A DNA stretch of 64,000 nt. Origin: Escherichia coli. GTDB lineage: Bacteria > Pseudomonadota > Gammaproteobacteria > Enterobacterales > Enterobacteriaceae. Location of the stretch: the NCBI RefSeq assembly GCF_003018115.1, contig NZ_CP027457.1. One strand, given 5' to 3'. This document shows, one piece after another, positions 5,349 to 15,148 of this stretch (its first letter is position 1; every line of letters starts with the position of its first letter). Both the position numbers and the translations under genes were made by a program. Under the pieces are notes generated by a model, which did not search any database, had not been told where the DNA came from, and saw only the letters and a list, made by a program, of their open reading frames with translations.

Positions 5349-8045
5349 TTACTGCCAGCCGTAACGACGGCTATAGAACCCTTTCACCAACTGGGTTAAT
5401 GTCATATACCCTGCCAGAATCGCAACCAGCCACGGGAAATAGCTTAACGGCAACGCCTGTAATTGCAGATAACTGGCCAGCGGTGAAAACGGCAATGCGA
5501 TCCCGACAATCATCACGATCACGGTCATGATCATTAACGGCCACGATGCACAGCTCTGAATAAACGGCACACGGCGGGTGCGGATCATATGCACAATCAG
5601 CGTTTGCGACAGTAAGCCCACCACAAACCATCCCGACTGGAACAGCGTTTGCGTTTCCGGCGTGTTGGCATGGAATACCCACCACATCAGGCAAAACGTC
5701 AAAATATCGAAGATCGAGCTGATCGGTCCGAAGAAGATCATAAAGCGCCCCAGATCCGCCGGATTCCAACGCTGCGGCTTTTGAATTTGCTCGTCGTCGA
5801 CGTTATCAAACGGGATCGCCACCTGTGACACATCGTACAGCAGGTTCTGAATAAGCAAGTGTAACGGCAACATCGGTAGGAAGGGCAAGAAAGCACTCGC
5901 TACCAGCACGCTGAACACATTACCGAAGTTAGAGCTCGCCGTCATTTTGATGTATTTCAGCATGTTGGCGAAAGTGCGACGTCCCTCAATAACCCCCTCT
6001 TCCAGCACCATCAGGCTTTTTTCCAGCAGGATGATATCAGCCGCTTCACGGGCAATATCTACCGCGCCGTCCACAGAAATGCCGATATCCGCAGCGCGTA
6101 AGGCGGGCGCATCATTAATACCATCGCCCATAAAGCCAACCACATGCCCTTCGCGCTTCAGTAAGGTCACAATGCGTTCTTTATGCATCGGCGTCAGGCG
6201 GGCAAACAGCGTGGTGCGCTGTGCAAGATTTGCCAGTTCGTCGTCAGATAGCGTTTCAATATCACTACCAATGACCACCTCTCCCGCGTCCAGCCCCACT
6301 TCATGGCACACTTTCGCTGCAACTAACTCACTGTCGCCAGTAAGGATTTTTACGGTAATTCCACTCGCTTTTAATGCCTTCAGTGCCGGAGCGGTTGTCT
6401 CTTTTGGCGGATCAAGGAAAGCAATATATCCTTCGAGGATCAGGTCGGATTCATCCGCCCGCTGGTAATCTCCTTCACGCGCTGGCAGGTATTTCGTCGC
6501 CACCGCAACCACGCGCAGCCCCTGACGATTCAGCGTATCAGTAACCCGCTTAATCTTACGCAGCATGATGTCATCGAGCGGCACAATCTCGCCATTGTGA
6601 CGCACCTGCGAACACACATTGAGGATTTCCTGCAATGCACCTTTGCAAACCAGCTGATGGTGCTCGGTATTTTCTGCCACTACCACCGACATCCGGCGAC
6701 GCTCGAAATCAAACGGAATCTCATCGATTTTTTGCCAACGACTGGCCAGCGAGCGCGCTGACTCTTCATCCGTACCTTCGAGCACCGCTGTATCGAGCAG
6801 GTTTTTAAGTCCGGTCTGATAATGACTGTTCAACCACGCGCTATGCAGCACGCGTTCGCTGGTTTTACCGGAGATATCGGTATGATTCTCCAGCACAATT
6901 TTATCCTGTGTCAGGGTGCCGGTTTTATCAGTGCACAGAATATCCATTGCGCCAAAGTTCTGAATGGCATCCAGATGTTTGACGATCACTTTCTGTTTCG
7001 ACAGCTTTACTGCGCCGCGCGCCAGCGTCGAGGTAACAATCATCGGCAACATTTCCGGCGTTAGGCCTACCGCGACCGAAAGCGCAAACAGCGCCGCTTC
7101 CCACCAGTCGCCTTTGGTGTAGCCATTGATTAACAGCACCACCGGTGCCATCACCAGCATAAAGCGAATCAGCAGCATACTGACGCGGCTGATCCCTTGC
7201 TGAAAGGCATTCGGCTCGCTTTCCTGCTCACTAACACGCCCCGCCAGTTGACCAAACCAGGTATTGGCACCTGTAGCAATCACCATTGCTTGTGCCGTGC
7301 CGCTCACCACGGTGGTGCCCATAAAACACAGCGTGTCGCACTCCAGCGGATTGCTGTGCTCCGGCTGGCGAGTGGTAGCGGCTTTTTCCACGGGCAGAGA
7401 CTCACCGGTTAACGACGCCTGAGCGACGAACAGATCCCGCGCCTGCAAGATACGTAAATCTGCCGGGATCATATCTCCCGCCGCCAGTTTTATAATATCG
7501 CCGGGCACCAGCTGGTCGATCGGGATCTCCAGCCAGCCATTTTCGCCTTTGTCGTTAATTACGCGCAGCACCGTCGCGGTATTGCTGACCATCGCTTTCA
7601 GGGCATCTGCCGCTTTAGTGGAACGTGCTTCCTGAATAAAGTTCAGCAACGTAGAAATAGCGACCATTAGCGCGATAACGCCCGCAGCAAATAAATCTTC
7701 CGTGGCGTAAGAAATAGCGCCGAGAATGGTGAGTAAAATATTAAAGGGGTTGCGATAGCAGACCCATAAATGTACCCACCACGGCGACGGTTGTTGTGCG
7801 GGTAATTTATTTTCACCATGTTGTTCGCGGGCAGATTCCACTTCCGCCTGATTTAACCCTTCCGGATGGGTGTCGAACGTTTTCCACAATTCTTCTTCGG
7901 GCATCACCGCCATTTTCAGGCAATGCGCACTTAAGGACGGCGGGACCACCGTATTCACTGTCTGCTGCGCGCCAGGCAATGGATCACGATGAACCAGACG
8001 GGAAGGTAAATGGCGAATGAGCCGGGTAAAAATTTCTTTAAACAT
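5349..8045 (-). CDS. mgtA: Mg2+-importing P-type ATPase
   Basis: 898-aa ORF with P-type ATPase motifs (DKTGTLT, TGDS, GDGINDAPAL). Confidence 0.95.
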   Translation of the reverse strand: MFKEIFTRLIRHLPSRLVHRDPLPGAQQTVNTVVPPSLSAHCLKMAVMPEEELWKTFDTHPEGLNQAEVESAREQHGENKLPAQQPSPWWVHLWVCYRNPFNILLTILGAISYATEDLFAAGVIALMVAISTLLNFIQEARSTKAADALKAMVSNTATVLRVINDKGENGWLEIPIDQLVPGDIIKLAAGDMIPADLRILQARDLFVAQASLTGESLPVEKAATTRQPEHSNPLECDTLCFMGTTVVSGTAQAMVIATGANTWFGQLAGRVSEQESEPNAFQQGISRVSMLLIRFMLVMAPVVLLINGYTKGDWWEAALFALSVAVGLTPEMLPMIVTSTLARGAVKLSKQKVIVKHLDAIQNFGAMDILCTDKTGTLTQDKIVLENHTDISGKTSERVLHSAWLNSHYQTGLKNLLDTAVLEGTDEESARSLASRWQKIDEIPFDFERRRMSVVVAENTEHHQLVCKGALQEILNVCSQVRHNGEIVPLDDIMLRKIKRVTDTLNRQGLRVVAVATKYLPAREGDYQRADESDLILEGYIAFLDPPKETTAPALKALKASGITVKILTGDSELVAAKVCHEVGLDAGEVVIGSDIETLSDDELANLAQRTTLFARLTPMHKERIVTLLKREGHVVGFMGDGINDAPALRAADIGISVDGAVDIAREAADIILLEKSLMVLEEGVIEGRRTFANMLKYIKMTASSNFGNVFSVLVASAFLPFLPMLPLHLLIQNLLYDVSQVAIPFDNVDDEQIQKPQRWNPADLGRFMIFFGPISSIFDILTFCLMWWVFHANTPETQTLFQSGWFVVGLLSQTLIVHMIRTRRVPFIQSCASWPLMIMTVIVMIVGIALPFSPLASYLQLQALPLSYFPWLVAILAGYMTLTQLVKGFYSRRYGWQ

Positions 8046-10960: not shown

Positions 10961-12616
10961 ATGACTAATCTTCCCCACTGGTGGCAAAACGGCGCTATCT
11001 ACCAGATTTATCCAAAGAGTTTTCAGGACACCACGGGTAGCGGTACCGGCGATTTACGTGGCGTTATACAACGCCTGGACTATCTGCATAAACTGGGCGT
11101 TGATGCCATCTGGCTAACCCCCTTTTATGTCTCTCCCCAGGTCGATAACGGTTACGACGTAGCGAACTATACGGCGATTGATCCCACCTACGGCACGCTG
11201 GACGATTTTGACGAACTGGTGACGCAGGCAAAATCGCGCGGGATTCGTATCATTCTCGATATGGTGTTTAACCATACCTCTACCCAACATGCCTGGTTTC
11301 GCGAGGCGCTGAACAAAGAAAGCCCTTACCGCCAGTTTTATATCTGGCGCGATGGCGAACCAGAAACGCCACCGAACAACTGGCGTTCAAAATTTGGCGG
11401 TAGTGCGTGGCGCTGGCATGCGGAAAGCGAACAGTACTATTTGCATCTCTTTGCACCAGAACAGGCGGATCTCAACTGGGAGAATCCAGCGGTACGCGCA
11501 GAGCTGAAAAAAGTCTGTGAGTTCTGGGCCGATCGTGGGGTCGACGGGTTGCGCCTGGATGTGGTGAATCTGATCTCCAAAGACCCGCGTTTCCCTGAAG
11601 ACCTGGACGGCGACGGGCGTCGCTTCTACACCGACGGGCCACGAGCACACGAGTTTTTGCACGAGATGAACCGCGATGTGTTTACGCCACGCGGGTTAAT
11701 GACCGTAGGTGAAATGTCCTCCACCAGCCTTGAGCATTGCCAGCGATACGCGGCACTGACAGGCAGTGAATTGTCGATGACCTTTAATTTTCATCACCTG
11801 AAGGTCGATTATCCCGGTGGTGAAAAATGGACGCTGGCTAAACCTGACTTTGTGGCGTTGAAAACATTGTTCCGCCACTGGCAACAAGGAATGCACAACG
11901 TGGCATGGAATGCCTTGTTCTGGTGTAACCACGATCAGCCGCGCATTGTTTCTCGCTTTGGTGATGAAGGTGAATACCGCGTGCCTGCGGCAAAAATGCT
12001 GGCGATGGTGCTGCATGGCATGCAGGGAACGCCGTATATCTACCAGGGCGAAGAGATTGGCATGACCAACCCGCATTTCACGCGCATTACTGACTATCGC
12101 GACGTAGAGAGCCTCAATATGTTTGCCGAGCTGCGCAACGATGGTCGTGATGCCGACGAGTTATTGGCAATCCTCGCCAGTAAATCCCGTGACAACAGTC
12201 GCACGCCCATGCAATGGAGCAACGGCGATAATGCCGGGTTTACGGCTGGCGAACCGTGGATTAGCCTGGGCGATAACTATCAGGAAATCAACGTAGAAGC
12301 CGCGCTGACCGATGAGTCCTCGGTGTTTTACACCTACCAAAAGTTAATCGCACTGCGTAAGCAAGAAGCCGTTCTGACATGGGGCAATTACCAGGATCTG
12401 CTGCCAAACAGCCCTGTATTGTGGTGCTATCGCCGTGAATGGAAGGGGCAAACCTTGCTGGTCATTGCCAACCTTAGCCGTGAGATCCAACCCTGGCAGC
12501 CAGAGCAAATGCGCGGCAACTGGCAGCTTGTGATGCATAACTACGAAGAAGCCTCACCACAACCCTGTGCCATGACTTTACGGCCTTTTGAGGCTGTCTG
12601 GTGGTTACATAAGTAA
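10961..12616 (+). CDS. treC: trehalose-6-phosphate hydrolase (GH13)
   Basis: ORF track 10814..12616; true start MTNLPHWWQNGAIYQIYPKSF gives 551 aa. Confidence 0.95.
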   Translation: MTNLPHWWQNGAIYQIYPKSFQDTTGSGTGDLRGVIQRLDYLHKLGVDAIWLTPFYVSPQVDNGYDVANYTAIDPTYGTLDDFDELVTQAKSRGIRIILDMVFNHTSTQHAWFREALNKESPYRQFYIWRDGEPETPPNNWRSKFGGSAWRWHAESEQYYLHLFAPEQADLNWENPAVRAELKKVCEFWADRGVDGLRLDVVNLISKDPRFPEDLDGDGRRFYTDGPRAHEFLHEMNRDVFTPRGLMTVGEMSSTSLEHCQRYAALTGSELSMTFNFHHLKVDYPGGEKWTLAKPDFVALKTLFRHWQQGMHNVAWNALFWCNHDQPRIVSRFGDEGEYRVPAAKMLAMVLHGMQGTPYIYQGEEIGMTNPHFTRITDYRDVESLNMFAELRNDGRDADELLAILASKSRDNSRTPMQWSNGDNAGFTAGEPWISLGDNYQEINVEAALTDESSVFYTYQKLIALRKQEAVLTWGNYQDLLPNSPVLWCYRREWKGQTLLVIANLSREIQPWQPEQMRGNWQLVMHNYEEASPQPCAMTLRPFEAVWWLHK

Positions 12617-12627
12617 ATCTTCCCTAA

Positions 12628-12657
12628 GCCCCGGTAATGCCGGTCATTCCGGGGTTT
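12628..12657 (+). terminator. rho-independent terminator after treC
   Basis: Hairpin CCCCGG...CCGGGG followed by TTTT. Confidence 0.6.
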
Positions 12658-12759
12658 TGCCTGTCAGCATGTTGTTTTTGTTGATTTTTCAACCAGCAAA
12701 TTCATTAAAAAATTTACATAACGCTGTAGCGCCCGTCATCCGTACGCTCTGCTTTTTAC

Positions 12760-12773
12760 TTTGAGCTACATCA
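12760..12773. promoter_or_regulatory. candidate FNR site (TTGAGctacATCAA) upstream of nrdD
   Basis: Matches TTGAT-N4-ATCAA with one mismatch; centre 31 bp from the second candidate site. Confidence 0.5.
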
Positions 12774-12790
12774 AAAAAAGTTCAAACATC

Positions 12791-12804
12791 CTTGATGCAA
12801 AGCA
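12791..12804. promoter_or_regulatory. candidate promoter-proximal FNR half-match (TTGATgcaaAGCAC) upstream of nrdD
   Basis: Strong left half-site only; a TAAAAT -10-like hexamer lies at 12818-12823. Confidence 0.4.
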
Positions 12805-12848
12805 CTATATATAGACTTTAAAATGCGTCCCAACCCAATATGTTGTAT
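12801..12848. promoter_or_regulatory. candidate NrdR boxes overlapping the nrdDG promoter
   Basis: Two AT-rich pseudo-palindromes (CACTATATATAG and CCAATATGTTGTAT) about 32 bp apart; assignment by resemblance to the NrdR box consensus. Confidence 0.3.
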
Positions 12849-13009
12849 TAATCGACTATAATTGCTACTACAGCTCCCCACGAAAAAGGTGCGGCGTTGT
12901 GGATAAGCGGATGGCGATTGCGGAAAGCTCCGGAAAACGAAACGAAAAAACCGGAAAACGCCTTTCCCAATTTCTGTGGATAACCTGTTCTTAAAAATAT
13001 GGAGCGATC

Positions 13010-15148
13010 ATGACACCGCATGTGATGAAACGAGACGGCTGCAAAGTGCCGTTTAAATCAGAGCGCATCAAAGAAGCGATTCTGCGTGCAGCTAAAGCAG
13101 CGGAAGTCGATGATGCCGATTATTGCGCCACTGTTGCCGCGGTTGTCAGCGAGCATATGCAGGGCCGCAACCAGGTGGATATCAACGAGATCCAGACCGC
13201 AGTTGAAAACCAGCTGATGTCGGGTCCATACAAACAACTGGCTCGTGCTTACATCGAGTACCGTCACGATCGCGACATTGAACGTGAAAAACGCGGTCGC
13301 CTGAACCAGGAGATCCGTGGCCTGGTCGAGCAGACCAACGCCTCGTTACTCAACGAAAACGCCAACAAAGACAGCAAGGTGATTCCAACCCAGCGCGACC
13401 TGCTGGCCGGGATCGTGGCTAAACACTATGCACGTCAGCACCTGCTGCCGCGTGACGTGGTGCAGGCACATGAGCGTGGCGATATTCACTATCACGATCT
13501 CGATTACTCGCCGTTCTTCCCGATGTTCAACTGCATGTTGATCGACCTGAAAGGCATGCTGACCCAGGGCTTTAAGATGGGGAACGCCGAGATTGAACCG
13601 CCGAAGTCGATCTCTACGGCAACCGCTGTAACTGCGCAGATTATTGCTCAGGTCGCCAGCCATATTTATGGCGGCACCACCATTAACCGTATCGATGAAG
13701 TGCTGGCACCGTTTGTCACCGCCAGCTACAACAAACATCGCAAGACCGCAGAAGAGTGGAACATCCCGGACGCCGAAGGCTACGCTAACTCTCGTACCAT
13801 TAAAGAGTGCTACGATGCCTTCCAGTCGCTGGAGTACGAAGTAAACACCCTGCACACCGCCAACGGTCAGACGCCGTTTGTAACCTTTGGTTTTGGTCTG
13901 GGCACCAGCTGGGAATCGCGCCTGATTCAGGAATCGATCCTGCGTAACCGTATCGCAGGCCTCGGTAAAAACCGTAAAACTGCGGTGTTCCCGAAACTGG
14001 TGTTTGCGATTCGCGATGGCCTGAACCATAAAAAAGGCGATCCGAACTACGACATCAAACAGCTGGCGCTGGAGTGCGCAAGCAAGCGCATGTATCCGGA
14101 TATCCTGAACTACGATCAGGTAGTGAAAGTCACCGGTTCGTTTAAAACCCCGATGGGCTGCCGCAGCTTCCTCGGCGTGTGGGAAAATGAAAACGGCGAG
14201 CAGATCCACGATGGTCGTAACAACCTCGGCGTGATCAGCCTGAACCTGCCGCGTATTGCGCTGGAAGCAAAAGGCGATGAAGCCACCTTCTGGAAGCTGC
14301 TGGATGAACGTCTGGTGCTGGCACGTAAGGCGCTGATGACCCGTATCGCTCGTCTCGAAGGCGTGAAAGCGCGCGTGGCCCCGATCCTCTATATGGAAGG
14401 TGCTTGTGGCGTGCGTCTCAATGCTGACGATGATGTTTCTGAAATCTTCAAAAACGGTCGTGCGTCTATTTCGCTGGGTTACATCGGCATCCACGAAACC
14501 ATTAACGCGCTGTTCGGCGGCGAGCATGTTTACGACAACGAGCAGCTTCGCGCGAAAGGTATCGCCATTGTTGAACGTCTGCGTCAGGCAGTGGATCAGT
14601 GGAAAGAAGAAACGGGTTATGGTTTCAGTCTCTACAGCACGCCGAGTGAAAACCTGTGCGACCGCTTCTGCCGTCTCGATACTGCTGAGTTTGGCGTGGT
14701 GCCGGGCGTGACCGATAAAGGTTACTACACCAACAGTTTCCACCTCGATGTGGAGAAGAAGGTGAACCCGTACGACAAGATCGACTTTGAAGCGCCTTAC
14801 CCGCCGCTGGCGAACGGTGGTTTCATTTGCTACGGCGAGTATCCAAACATTCAGCACAACCTGAAGGCGCTGGAAGATGTCTGGGATTACAGCTATCAGC
14901 ATGTACCGTATTACGGCACCAATACACCGATTGATGAGTGCTACGAGTGTGGCTTTACCGGTGAGTTCGAGTGCACCAGCAAAGGCTTCACCTGCCCGAA
15001 ATGTGGTAACCATGACGCCTCCCGTGTGTCGGTAACTCGCCGCGTGTGCGGATATTTAGGTAGCCCGGATGCACGTCCGTTTAACGCCGGCAAGCAGGAA
15101 GAAGTTAAGCGCCGCGTTAAACATTTGGGAAATGGGCAGATAGGTTGA
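13010..15148 (+). CDS. nrdD: anaerobic ribonucleoside-triphosphate reductase
   Basis: 712-aa ORF with N-terminal ATP-cone and C-terminal Zn-ribbon/glycyl-radical region (CYECGF...CPKCG). Confidence 0.95.
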   Translation: MTPHVMKRDGCKVPFKSERIKEAILRAAKAAEVDDADYCATVAAVVSEHMQGRNQVDINEIQTAVENQLMSGPYKQLARAYIEYRHDRDIEREKRGRLNQEIRGLVEQTNASLLNENANKDSKVIPTQRDLLAGIVAKHYARQHLLPRDVVQAHERGDIHYHDLDYSPFFPMFNCMLIDLKGMLTQGFKMGNAEIEPPKSISTATAVTAQIIAQVASHIYGGTTINRIDEVLAPFVTASYNKHRKTAEEWNIPDAEGYANSRTIKECYDAFQSLEYEVNTLHTANGQTPFVTFGFGLGTSWESRLIQESILRNRIAGLGKNRKTAVFPKLVFAIRDGLNHKKGDPNYDIKQLALECASKRMYPDILNYDQVVKVTGSFKTPMGCRSFLGVWENENGEQIHDGRNNLGVISLNLPRIALEAKGDEATFWKLLDERLVLARKALMTRIARLEGVKARVAPILYMEGACGVRLNADDDVSEIFKNGRASISLGYIGIHETINALFGGEHVYDNEQLRAKGIAIVERLRQAVDQWKEETGYGFSLYSTPSENLCDRFCRLDTAEFGVVPGVTDKGYYTNSFHLDVEKKVNPYDKIDFEAPYPPLANGGFICYGEYPNIQHNLKALEDVWDYSYQHVPYYGTNTPIDECYECGFTGEFECTSKGFTCPKCGNHDASRVSVTRRVCGYLGSPDARPFNAGKQEEVKRRVKHLGNGQIG

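Follow-up and report, generated by a model that had tools for sequence, protein, structure and literature searches.

At oriC, according to work attributed to Rozgaja et al. in 2011, arrays of low-affinity DnaA sites are reportedly anchored by high-affinity boxes. Complexes of DnaA with its boxes are also said to block transcribing RNA polymerase, a finding credited to Schaefer and Messer in 1988. Promoters with double DnaA boxes include those of nrdAB, purH, polA, dnaA and mioC. In the ChIP-seq map of E. coli DnaA, nrdD is a bound region with 62-fold coverage, and the double box tTTAAGAACAggTTATCCACAg is listed for this gene (Stringer, Fitzgerald and Wade 2024, PMC11317965). The same paper states that sites at nrdD had been predicted before the ChIP-seq map, and two further papers reported larger amounts of the NrdD protein at low levels of DnaA-ATP or DnaA. 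FNR sites of nrdDG have been placed at -33.5 and -64.5 (PMC10425943), and H-NS is named as a regulator of nrdDG in the discussion of PMC12176259.

We analysed a stretch of 64,000 nucleotides of E. coli DNA, called the window below, in which an earlier note had pointed to a short direct repeat in the nrdD leader as a possible protein or RNA-structure element. DnaA occupancy of the nrdD locus and one double box are already known; the second perfect box, 77 bp upstream, is absent from PMC11317965, whose nrdD entry mentions neither this box nor the spacer between the boxes nor the repeat. The published double box corresponds to positions 12974-12995 of the window and is exactly the box 2 and weak box described here, which places nrdD beside nrdAB, purH, polA, dnaA and mioC. 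Like nrdAB, nrdD belongs to a ribonucleotide reductase operon tied to the replication initiator. Unlike these promoters, nrdD carries its boxes within the transcribed leader and not upstream of the promoter, and the copies of the repeat are not DnaA boxes.

Compared with the oriC arrays, nrdD likewise has two perfect, equally oriented anchor boxes at a distance that is a multiple of 11 bp, with DnaA occupancy centred between them. In contrast to those arrays, most E. coli have no convincing intermediate boxes in the spacer, whose sequence is not conserved, and neither a DNA-unwinding element nor an IHF site was seen at nrdD. As in the blocks attributed to Schaefer and Messer, the nrdD boxes lie inside the transcription unit, and NrdD goes up when DnaA or DnaA-ATP goes down; a roadblock at nrdD would be hypothetical. 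The leader also resembles 5' UTR stem-loops in that its predicted hairpin is imperfect, has an A-rich loop and shows compensatory changes among close relatives. It differs from the known ones in having no Rfam family, in being weak (-17 kcal/mol, z = -1.1) and in not being recoverable across the whole family.

Organisation of the nrdD Leader

The nrdD gene of the window is 100% identical to that of annotated E. coli genomes. The treC-nrdD intergenic region is 100% identical to that of strain F8111-1SC3 and is present in 5425 of the 5426 complete E. coli genomes. From the published positions of the FNR sites, we infer a transcription start near 12832, which gives a leader of about 178 nt. The repeat was thus rightly described as lying in a long leader, and the coordinates also bear out the claim that it falls outside the FNR sites and the NrdR boxes (Table 1). 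The NrdR region matches, base for base, the nrdDG oligonucleotide with which NrdR binding was assayed in PMC12176259. No location of an H-NS site at nrdDG was found in the literature search.

Table 1. Coordinates of the features in and around the nrdD leader, given as positions of the window.
Feature	Position	Strand	Evidence or remark
FNR site 2, TTGAGctacATCAA, centred at -64.5 (12767.5)	12761..12774	+	Sequence; 54-mer nrdDG promoter oligonucleotide, positions in PMC10425943
FNR site 1, TTGATgcaaAGCAC, centred at -33.5 (12798.5)	12792..12805	+	Sequence; positions in PMC10425943
NrdR box pair, cores CACTATATATAG (12803-12814) and CCAATATGTTGT (12835-12846)	~12800..12847	+	Exact limits are our reading
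DnaA box 1, perfect TTATCCACA, leader ~+67 to +75	12898..12906	-	Exact match; joint top matrix score
Inter-box spacer, 68 nt, variable in sequence, constrained in length	12907..12974	+	
Predicted imperfect RNA hairpin	12916..12972	+	Outer stem GAUUG.GGAAAG / CUUUCCCAAUU; inner stem CCGG/CCGG; 17-nt A-rich loop
Repeat copy 1, CCGGAAAACG	12930..12939	+	CCGG is the predicted 5' arm of the inner stem, AAAACG opens the predicted loop
Repeat copy 2, CCGGAAAACG	12951..12960	+	CCGG is the predicted 3' arm of the inner stem, AAAACG the predicted bulge
DnaA box 2, perfect TTATCCACA, leader ~+144 to +152	12975..12983	-	Strong half of the published nrdD 'double DnaA box'
Weak DnaA box, TTAAGAACA, 2 bp from box 2	12986..12994	-	Listed in Table 1 of PMC11317965
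nrdD coding sequence, 712 aa	13010..15148	+	Shine-Dalgarno GGAG at 13001-13004

Sequence and Chance Expectation of the Repeat

Direct reading of the sequence agreed with the central observation of the earlier note, i.e., two identical 10-mers, 21 apart, upstream of nrdD. The 10-mer CCGGAAAACG occurs exactly twice in the 64-kb window, with the starts of the copies 21 nt apart. The range given previously, 12929-12959, contained a real repeat and was set one base too far to the left. Copy 2 starts 59 nt upstream of the nrdD ATG (13010), and the two copies occupy about +99 to +108 and about +120 to +129 of the transcript. When mismatches are allowed, the repeat grows to 17 nt with 82% identity (GAAAGCTCCGGAAAACG and GAAAAAACCGGAAAACG).

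At position 12929, K-12 and most E. coli carry A, and with it the exact repeat lengthens to an 11-mer, ACCGGAAAACG; the window strain carries T. Over 12916-12974, no more than 26 of 5419 genomes share the allele of the window. With T, the inner stem of the predicted hairpin would gain a U-A pair, and copy 1 scores 4.6 bits with the DnaA matrix instead of 0.8.

In a local chance test, one of 2000 shuffled versions of the 68-nt spacer contained a 10-nt repeat. The window has 11 exact direct repeats that are 10 nt or longer and 10-50 bp apart, against 2.7 +/- 1.5 in first-order Markov simulations. The repeat is above chance locally but not at the scale of a scan of the whole window. Tandem Repeats Finder, run with a minimum score of 30, returned no rows at the repeat, and the full 21-nt units are only about 67% alike. 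The other exact 10-nt direct repeats lying 15-50 bp apart comprise ten pairs, about four times the random expectation, and four of these pairs are 45 bp apart. Their first copies start at 5598, 8462, 19110, 21395, 39377, 44330, 45914, 48154, 53210 and 60344.

Conservation of the Repeat

The upstream regions of 80 nrdD loci, from as many species-level Enterobacteriaceae genomes, were read, and 76 leaders contain both DnaA boxes. Conservation across enterobacterial nrdD leaders, on which the proposal of a functional repeat had been made to depend beforehand, failed: the pair of 10-mers is present in only 2 of the 76 leaders, those of the window E. coli and of E. albertii, and in the latter the last base of copy 2 differs. 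The pair is absent from the cryptic-clade Escherichia (L001, L003 and 'E. coli' N50), from Salmonella, Citrobacter, Klebsiella and Enterobacter and from all other sampled genera. The spacers of the other species contain no direct repeats of at least 9 nt. At the positions of the repeat, other species match E. coli at 30% of the bases of copy 1 and 20% of those of copy 2, which is chance level.

The spacers of E. coli and E. albertii differ at five positions, one of them inside copy 2, and polymorphisms within E. coli were seen at 12929, 12944 and 12961. Since differences occur both in and around the copies, these are no better conserved than their surroundings. All strict-sense E. coli that were sampled have retained the repeat, and because it is also locally improbable, a function limited to E. 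coli is conceivable on sequence alone.

The genome labelled 'E. coli' N50 (L085, NZ_CM165889.1) has an nrdD leader that is only 81.6% identical to that of the window. Its spacer is of the cryptic-clade type, as in L001 and L003, with CCCCG...CGGGG in place of the repeat, and recombination or mislabelling is possible. As E. albertii shares the E. coli spacer type, the type of spacer seems not to follow the usual species tree.

DnaA Boxes and Their Fixed Spacing

The dominant feature of the leader had been overlooked in the earlier note: two perfect, conserved DnaA boxes stand on either side of the repeat. The repeat search also gave TGTGGATAA twice, at 12898-12906 and 12975-12983, and on the minus strand this sequence is TTATCCACA, the DnaA-box consensus. 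The two flanking boxes are the only exact matches to TTATCCACA in the 64 kb (9/9 positions). They are also the top 9-mers of the window, with 14.5 bits each, according to a DnaA weight matrix made from published DnaA-bound boxes from which the nrdD pair had been left out. The weak box at 12986-12994 scores 7.8 bits, which is within the top 0.1% of window 9-mers, and has a column identity of 0.79. Within 12986-13009, the sequence CCTGTTCTT on the 3' side of box 2 is well conserved and is at the same time the weak DnaA box. Folding predicts that a segment immediately 3' of box 2 forms pairs with bases immediately before the nrdD ATG, close to the Shine-Dalgarno GGAG.

Both boxes are invariant in an alignment of 73 sequences and exact in about 70 of the 76 Enterobacteriaceae species. 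The distance between the box starts is 77 bp in 43 and 78 bp in 26 of the 76 species (together 69/76); it is 79 bp in four of the remaining species and 76, 75 and 66 bp in one species each. In 63 of 72 species the promoter and box 1 are 101-102 bp apart, and box 2 stands 29 to 47 bp before the ATG, depending on the species. Column identity is 0.58 in the spacer versus 1.00 in the boxes. Spacers of equal length (68 nt) have a pairwise identity of 0.43 versus 0.26 when shuffled, and the E. coli spacer is at most 0.53 identical to any spacer from outside Escherichia. The distances separating the promoter, box 1 and box 2 are held rigidly across the Enterobacteriaceae, and a description of this was not found in the literature examined.

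Three genomes, Enterobacteriaceae UBA7338 (L078), Escherichia sp. ESNIH1 (L079) and Pseudescherichia vulneris (L080), have short leaders without the box-spacer-box module, its absence being seen about 60 nt upstream of the nrdD ATG. The leader of P. vulneris keeps a single GTGGATAAC and looks like a deletion of the DNA between the two boxes. The spacing of 66 bp, found in L073, is one 11-bp step below the usual one.

Transferred through the MG1655 coordinates, the published ChIP-seq peak at 4462739 falls at about 12931 of the window, inside copy 1 and near the midpoint of the boxes, at a resolution that cannot split the boxes from the spacer; a peak near the midpoint is what is expected if both boxes are occupied. 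Because the boxes lie downstream of the transcription start, DnaA bound to them most likely lowers the expression of nrdDG, and such repression fits the rise of NrdD at low DnaA.

Origin of the Repeat

We consider it most probable, with a probability of about 0.68, that the repeat is not a functional unit and is instead the form taken in E. coli and E. albertii by a fast-evolving, length-constrained spacer between DnaA boxes. This spacer belongs to the transcribed nrdD leader and lies between two perfect boxes of the same orientation. Selection would act on both boxes, on their spacing of 77-78 bp and on the promoter distance of 101-102 bp and, with weaker support, perhaps also on an imperfect hairpin that the spacer forms in the sense-strand RNA. 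Since CCGG is palindromic, the arms of the stem are read as a direct repeat, and 4 of the 10 repeated bases are thereby explained. The AAAACG after each arm would be due to chance, as part of the A-rich loop and the bulge. The reiteration of such a short motif would probably have arisen as a by-product of mutation, e.g., by slippage or by the copying of a short patch, in a sequence that matters only through its length and its pairing. That DnaA represses nrdDG, that the hairpin has a role and that the repeat arose in this way are what we infer.

On this account, the repeat would be a lineage-specific sequence coincidence and not a regulatory element, and would matter little. Its surroundings are of moderate interest for the coupling of replication with the supply of dNTPs. 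What is added here is the second perfect box of the leader and the exactness of both boxes in about 70 species of the family, together with a box spacing and a promoter distance that are held within 1 bp as the intervening sequence drifts, and the loss of the module in a few lineages.

Predicted Structure of the Leader RNA

The copies could instead act as the arms and flanks of a regulatory hairpin in the 5' UTR, with a functional CCGG/CCGG stem and A-rich loop that would influence mRNA stability, translation or elongation; we regard this as doubtful. The CCGG cores of the two copies pair with each other in the minimum-free-energy folds of both the spacer and the whole leader, as such a hairpin would have it, and AAACG occurs for a third time between the copies, in the A-rich sequence of loop and bulge. 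The fold of the spacer has -17.3 kcal/mol and z = -1.1, and the whole leader, with z = -2.2, speaks more in favour of a structure. Over the species, the spacer has a mean z of -0.86 on the sense strand versus -0.56 on its reverse complement, which is again in favour. Against it, control regions ranged from +0.36 to -1.00, a coding control having a mean z comparable to that of the spacer.

The comparison of sequences gave a divided answer as well. RNAalifold found no pairs in all 73 leaders, and the E. coli structure placed on the 73-sequence alignment had 51% of cells paired versus 47% in shuffles and 52% when slid by +1. There is accordingly neither a family-wide consensus nor a gain over the slid controls on the full alignment, and both count against a functional hairpin. 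In favour of it, 17 sequences of Escherichia, Salmonella and Citrobacter gave a consensus hairpin of 11 pairs, with 91% of cells paired versus 35-55% when the partners were slid, and the same set had 12 compensatory cells versus 4 in shuffles. Compensatory changes between lineages, which also support it, include GGGAAG/CTTCCC to GGAAAG/CTTTCC in E. coli and the cryptic-clade CCCCG/CGGGG to CCGG/CCGG.

A covariance model from the close relatives matched only 28 of 71 loci at E <= 1, a further point against the hairpin. In the resulting 28-sequence alignment, 88% of cells are paired, many of them as G-U pairs on the sense strand, versus 29-57% in the slid controls across both alignments; as this alignment was fitted to the tested structure, it overstates the support for the hairpin. 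The many sense-strand G-U pairs point to RNA rather than to a DNA palindrome. A search of Rfam with 12400-13300 at E <= 10 had best scores of 14-21 bits and E of at least 1.1, far below the gathering scores, and a scan for terminators and promoters over 12600-13100 showed no terminator-like site on the + strand. Both results weigh against the hairpin as a regulatory element. The hairpin is followed by CCCAATTTC, and an intrinsic terminator or attenuator, which would call for a G+C-rich stem and then a T run, was rejected. The literature search returned nothing relevant on regulation of nrdD by sRNA or through its UTR.

A hairpin in the Escherichia, Salmonella and Citrobacter group is plausible on these predictions and, overall, unproven. 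The suggestion of an RNA-structure element therefore survives in part: the CCGG cores pair and the hairpin is moderately supported in close relatives, but the 10-mer is not its unit. Because only 4 of the 10 repeated bases pair, the direct repeat would be incidental even if the hairpin were real.

Possible DnaA Complexes across the Spacer

The fixed geometry of the leader may itself be the mechanism, with DnaA on both boxes forming a higher-order complex (a loop, a bridged pair or an oligomer). We consider this unlikely. If it were true, the DnaA complex in the leader would adjust the anaerobic production of dNTPs to the state of the initiator of replication, and the repeat, in E. coli, would add to it through phased A-tracts or through very weak contacts with DnaA. 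Some other requirement could also lie behind the conserved spacing.

It is very improbable that the copies are themselves low-affinity DnaA sites and that, with anchor boxes 77 = 7 x 11 bp apart, they support an oriC-like oligomerisation of DnaA-ATP over the spacer. On the minus strand, copy 1 of the window reads TTTTCCGGA, with matches at 6 of 9 positions and 4.6 bits (top 0.5% of 9-mers), and CTTTCCGCA at 12919-12927 has 5.7 bits. In K-12 and most E. coli, however, and in copy 2 everywhere, the sequence is TTTTCCGGT, whose 0.76 bits are equalled by about 2.4% of window 9-mers. Box positions 7-9 (ACA), which hardly vary among the published bound boxes, fail to match at any of the three bases, and the copies are 21 bp apart, not 22. 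Averaged over the species, similarity to the box has weak maxima +22, +33 and +44 from box 1, but these amount to no more than 3.3-3.9 matching positions of 9 and fall on the arms of the inverted repeat. The one species with its boxes an 11-bp step closer together would suit such an array. So would the centre of the ChIP peak within the spacer, although a centre between bound boxes 77 bp apart is expected regardless. The match profile and the weight matrix led us to reject the repeat copies as weak DnaA boxes.

We give just as little credence to the possibility that the repeat supplies phased A-tracts (12925, 12935, 12947 and 12956), which would bend the DNA and so join the DnaA-bound boxes or promoter complexes. 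The centres of these tracts are about 10-11 bp apart, the 21 bp of the repeat equal two helical turns, and the constrained length of the spacer suggests a geometric requirement. A quarter of the species have an A/T-tract periodicity of about 10-11 bp with p < 0.05 versus shuffles, but E. coli does not reach significance (p ~0.08), and over all species the median p is 0.23.

Other Candidate Functions

The chances are poorer still that the repeat is an operator for an E. coli-specific protein, e.g., a response regulator, reading direct repeats two helical turns apart. Such an operator would be in keeping with copies that are identical, 21 bp apart and retained in all sampled strict-sense E. coli. 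The copies are, however, conserved only in E. coli and E. albertii, whereas the gene, the promoter and the boxes are conserved beyond these species, and their location, 99-129 nt downstream of the transcription start, also speaks against an operator. No report of an operator site at the repeat was found in the literature search, and we know of no regulator with a motif of the CCGGAAAACG type. GAAAACG resembles one half-site of PurR; a PurR site was rejected, as the palindromic partner half is absent from the sequence.

CsrA sites are GGA motifs in hairpin loops. The E. coli spacer contains four GGA motifs and the spacers of other species 1.8 on average, and in the predicted fold each copy has its GGA partly in the stem and partly in the loop. 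No CsrA CLIP link to nrdD was found in the literature search, and the GGA count is not conserved; a CsrA site is doubtful.

An ORF on the + strand at 12911-12994 (MAIAESSGKRNEKTGKRLSQFLWITCS, from ATG to TAA) crosses the spacer, box 2 and the weak box. That the repeat encodes a duplicated SGKR / TGKR motif in this 27-codon upstream ORF, which would regulate the translation of nrdD, is the least credible of the readings: the ORF exists, the 21-nt spacing keeps the copies in frame and the stop lies 15 nt before the nrdD ATG, but the ORF is found only in E. coli and E. albertii, between which all four differences inside it are non-synonymous, 21 of 77 leaders are without an ATG ORF of at least 8 codons here, the rest differ in start and frame, and no good Shine-Dalgarno sequence precedes 12911. 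From its sequence features, the ORF is probably not translated.

On the minus strand, a 57-codon ATG ORF at 12848-13021 runs antisense to the whole nrdD leader and has no RefSeq gene in the matched genomes. A tiny ORF, ATG GAG CGA TCA TGA, overlaps the nrdD start codon. Just past the treC stop codon, at 12626-12657, the inverted repeat AAGCCCCGG / CCGGGGTTT is followed by T residues and is probably the treBC terminator.
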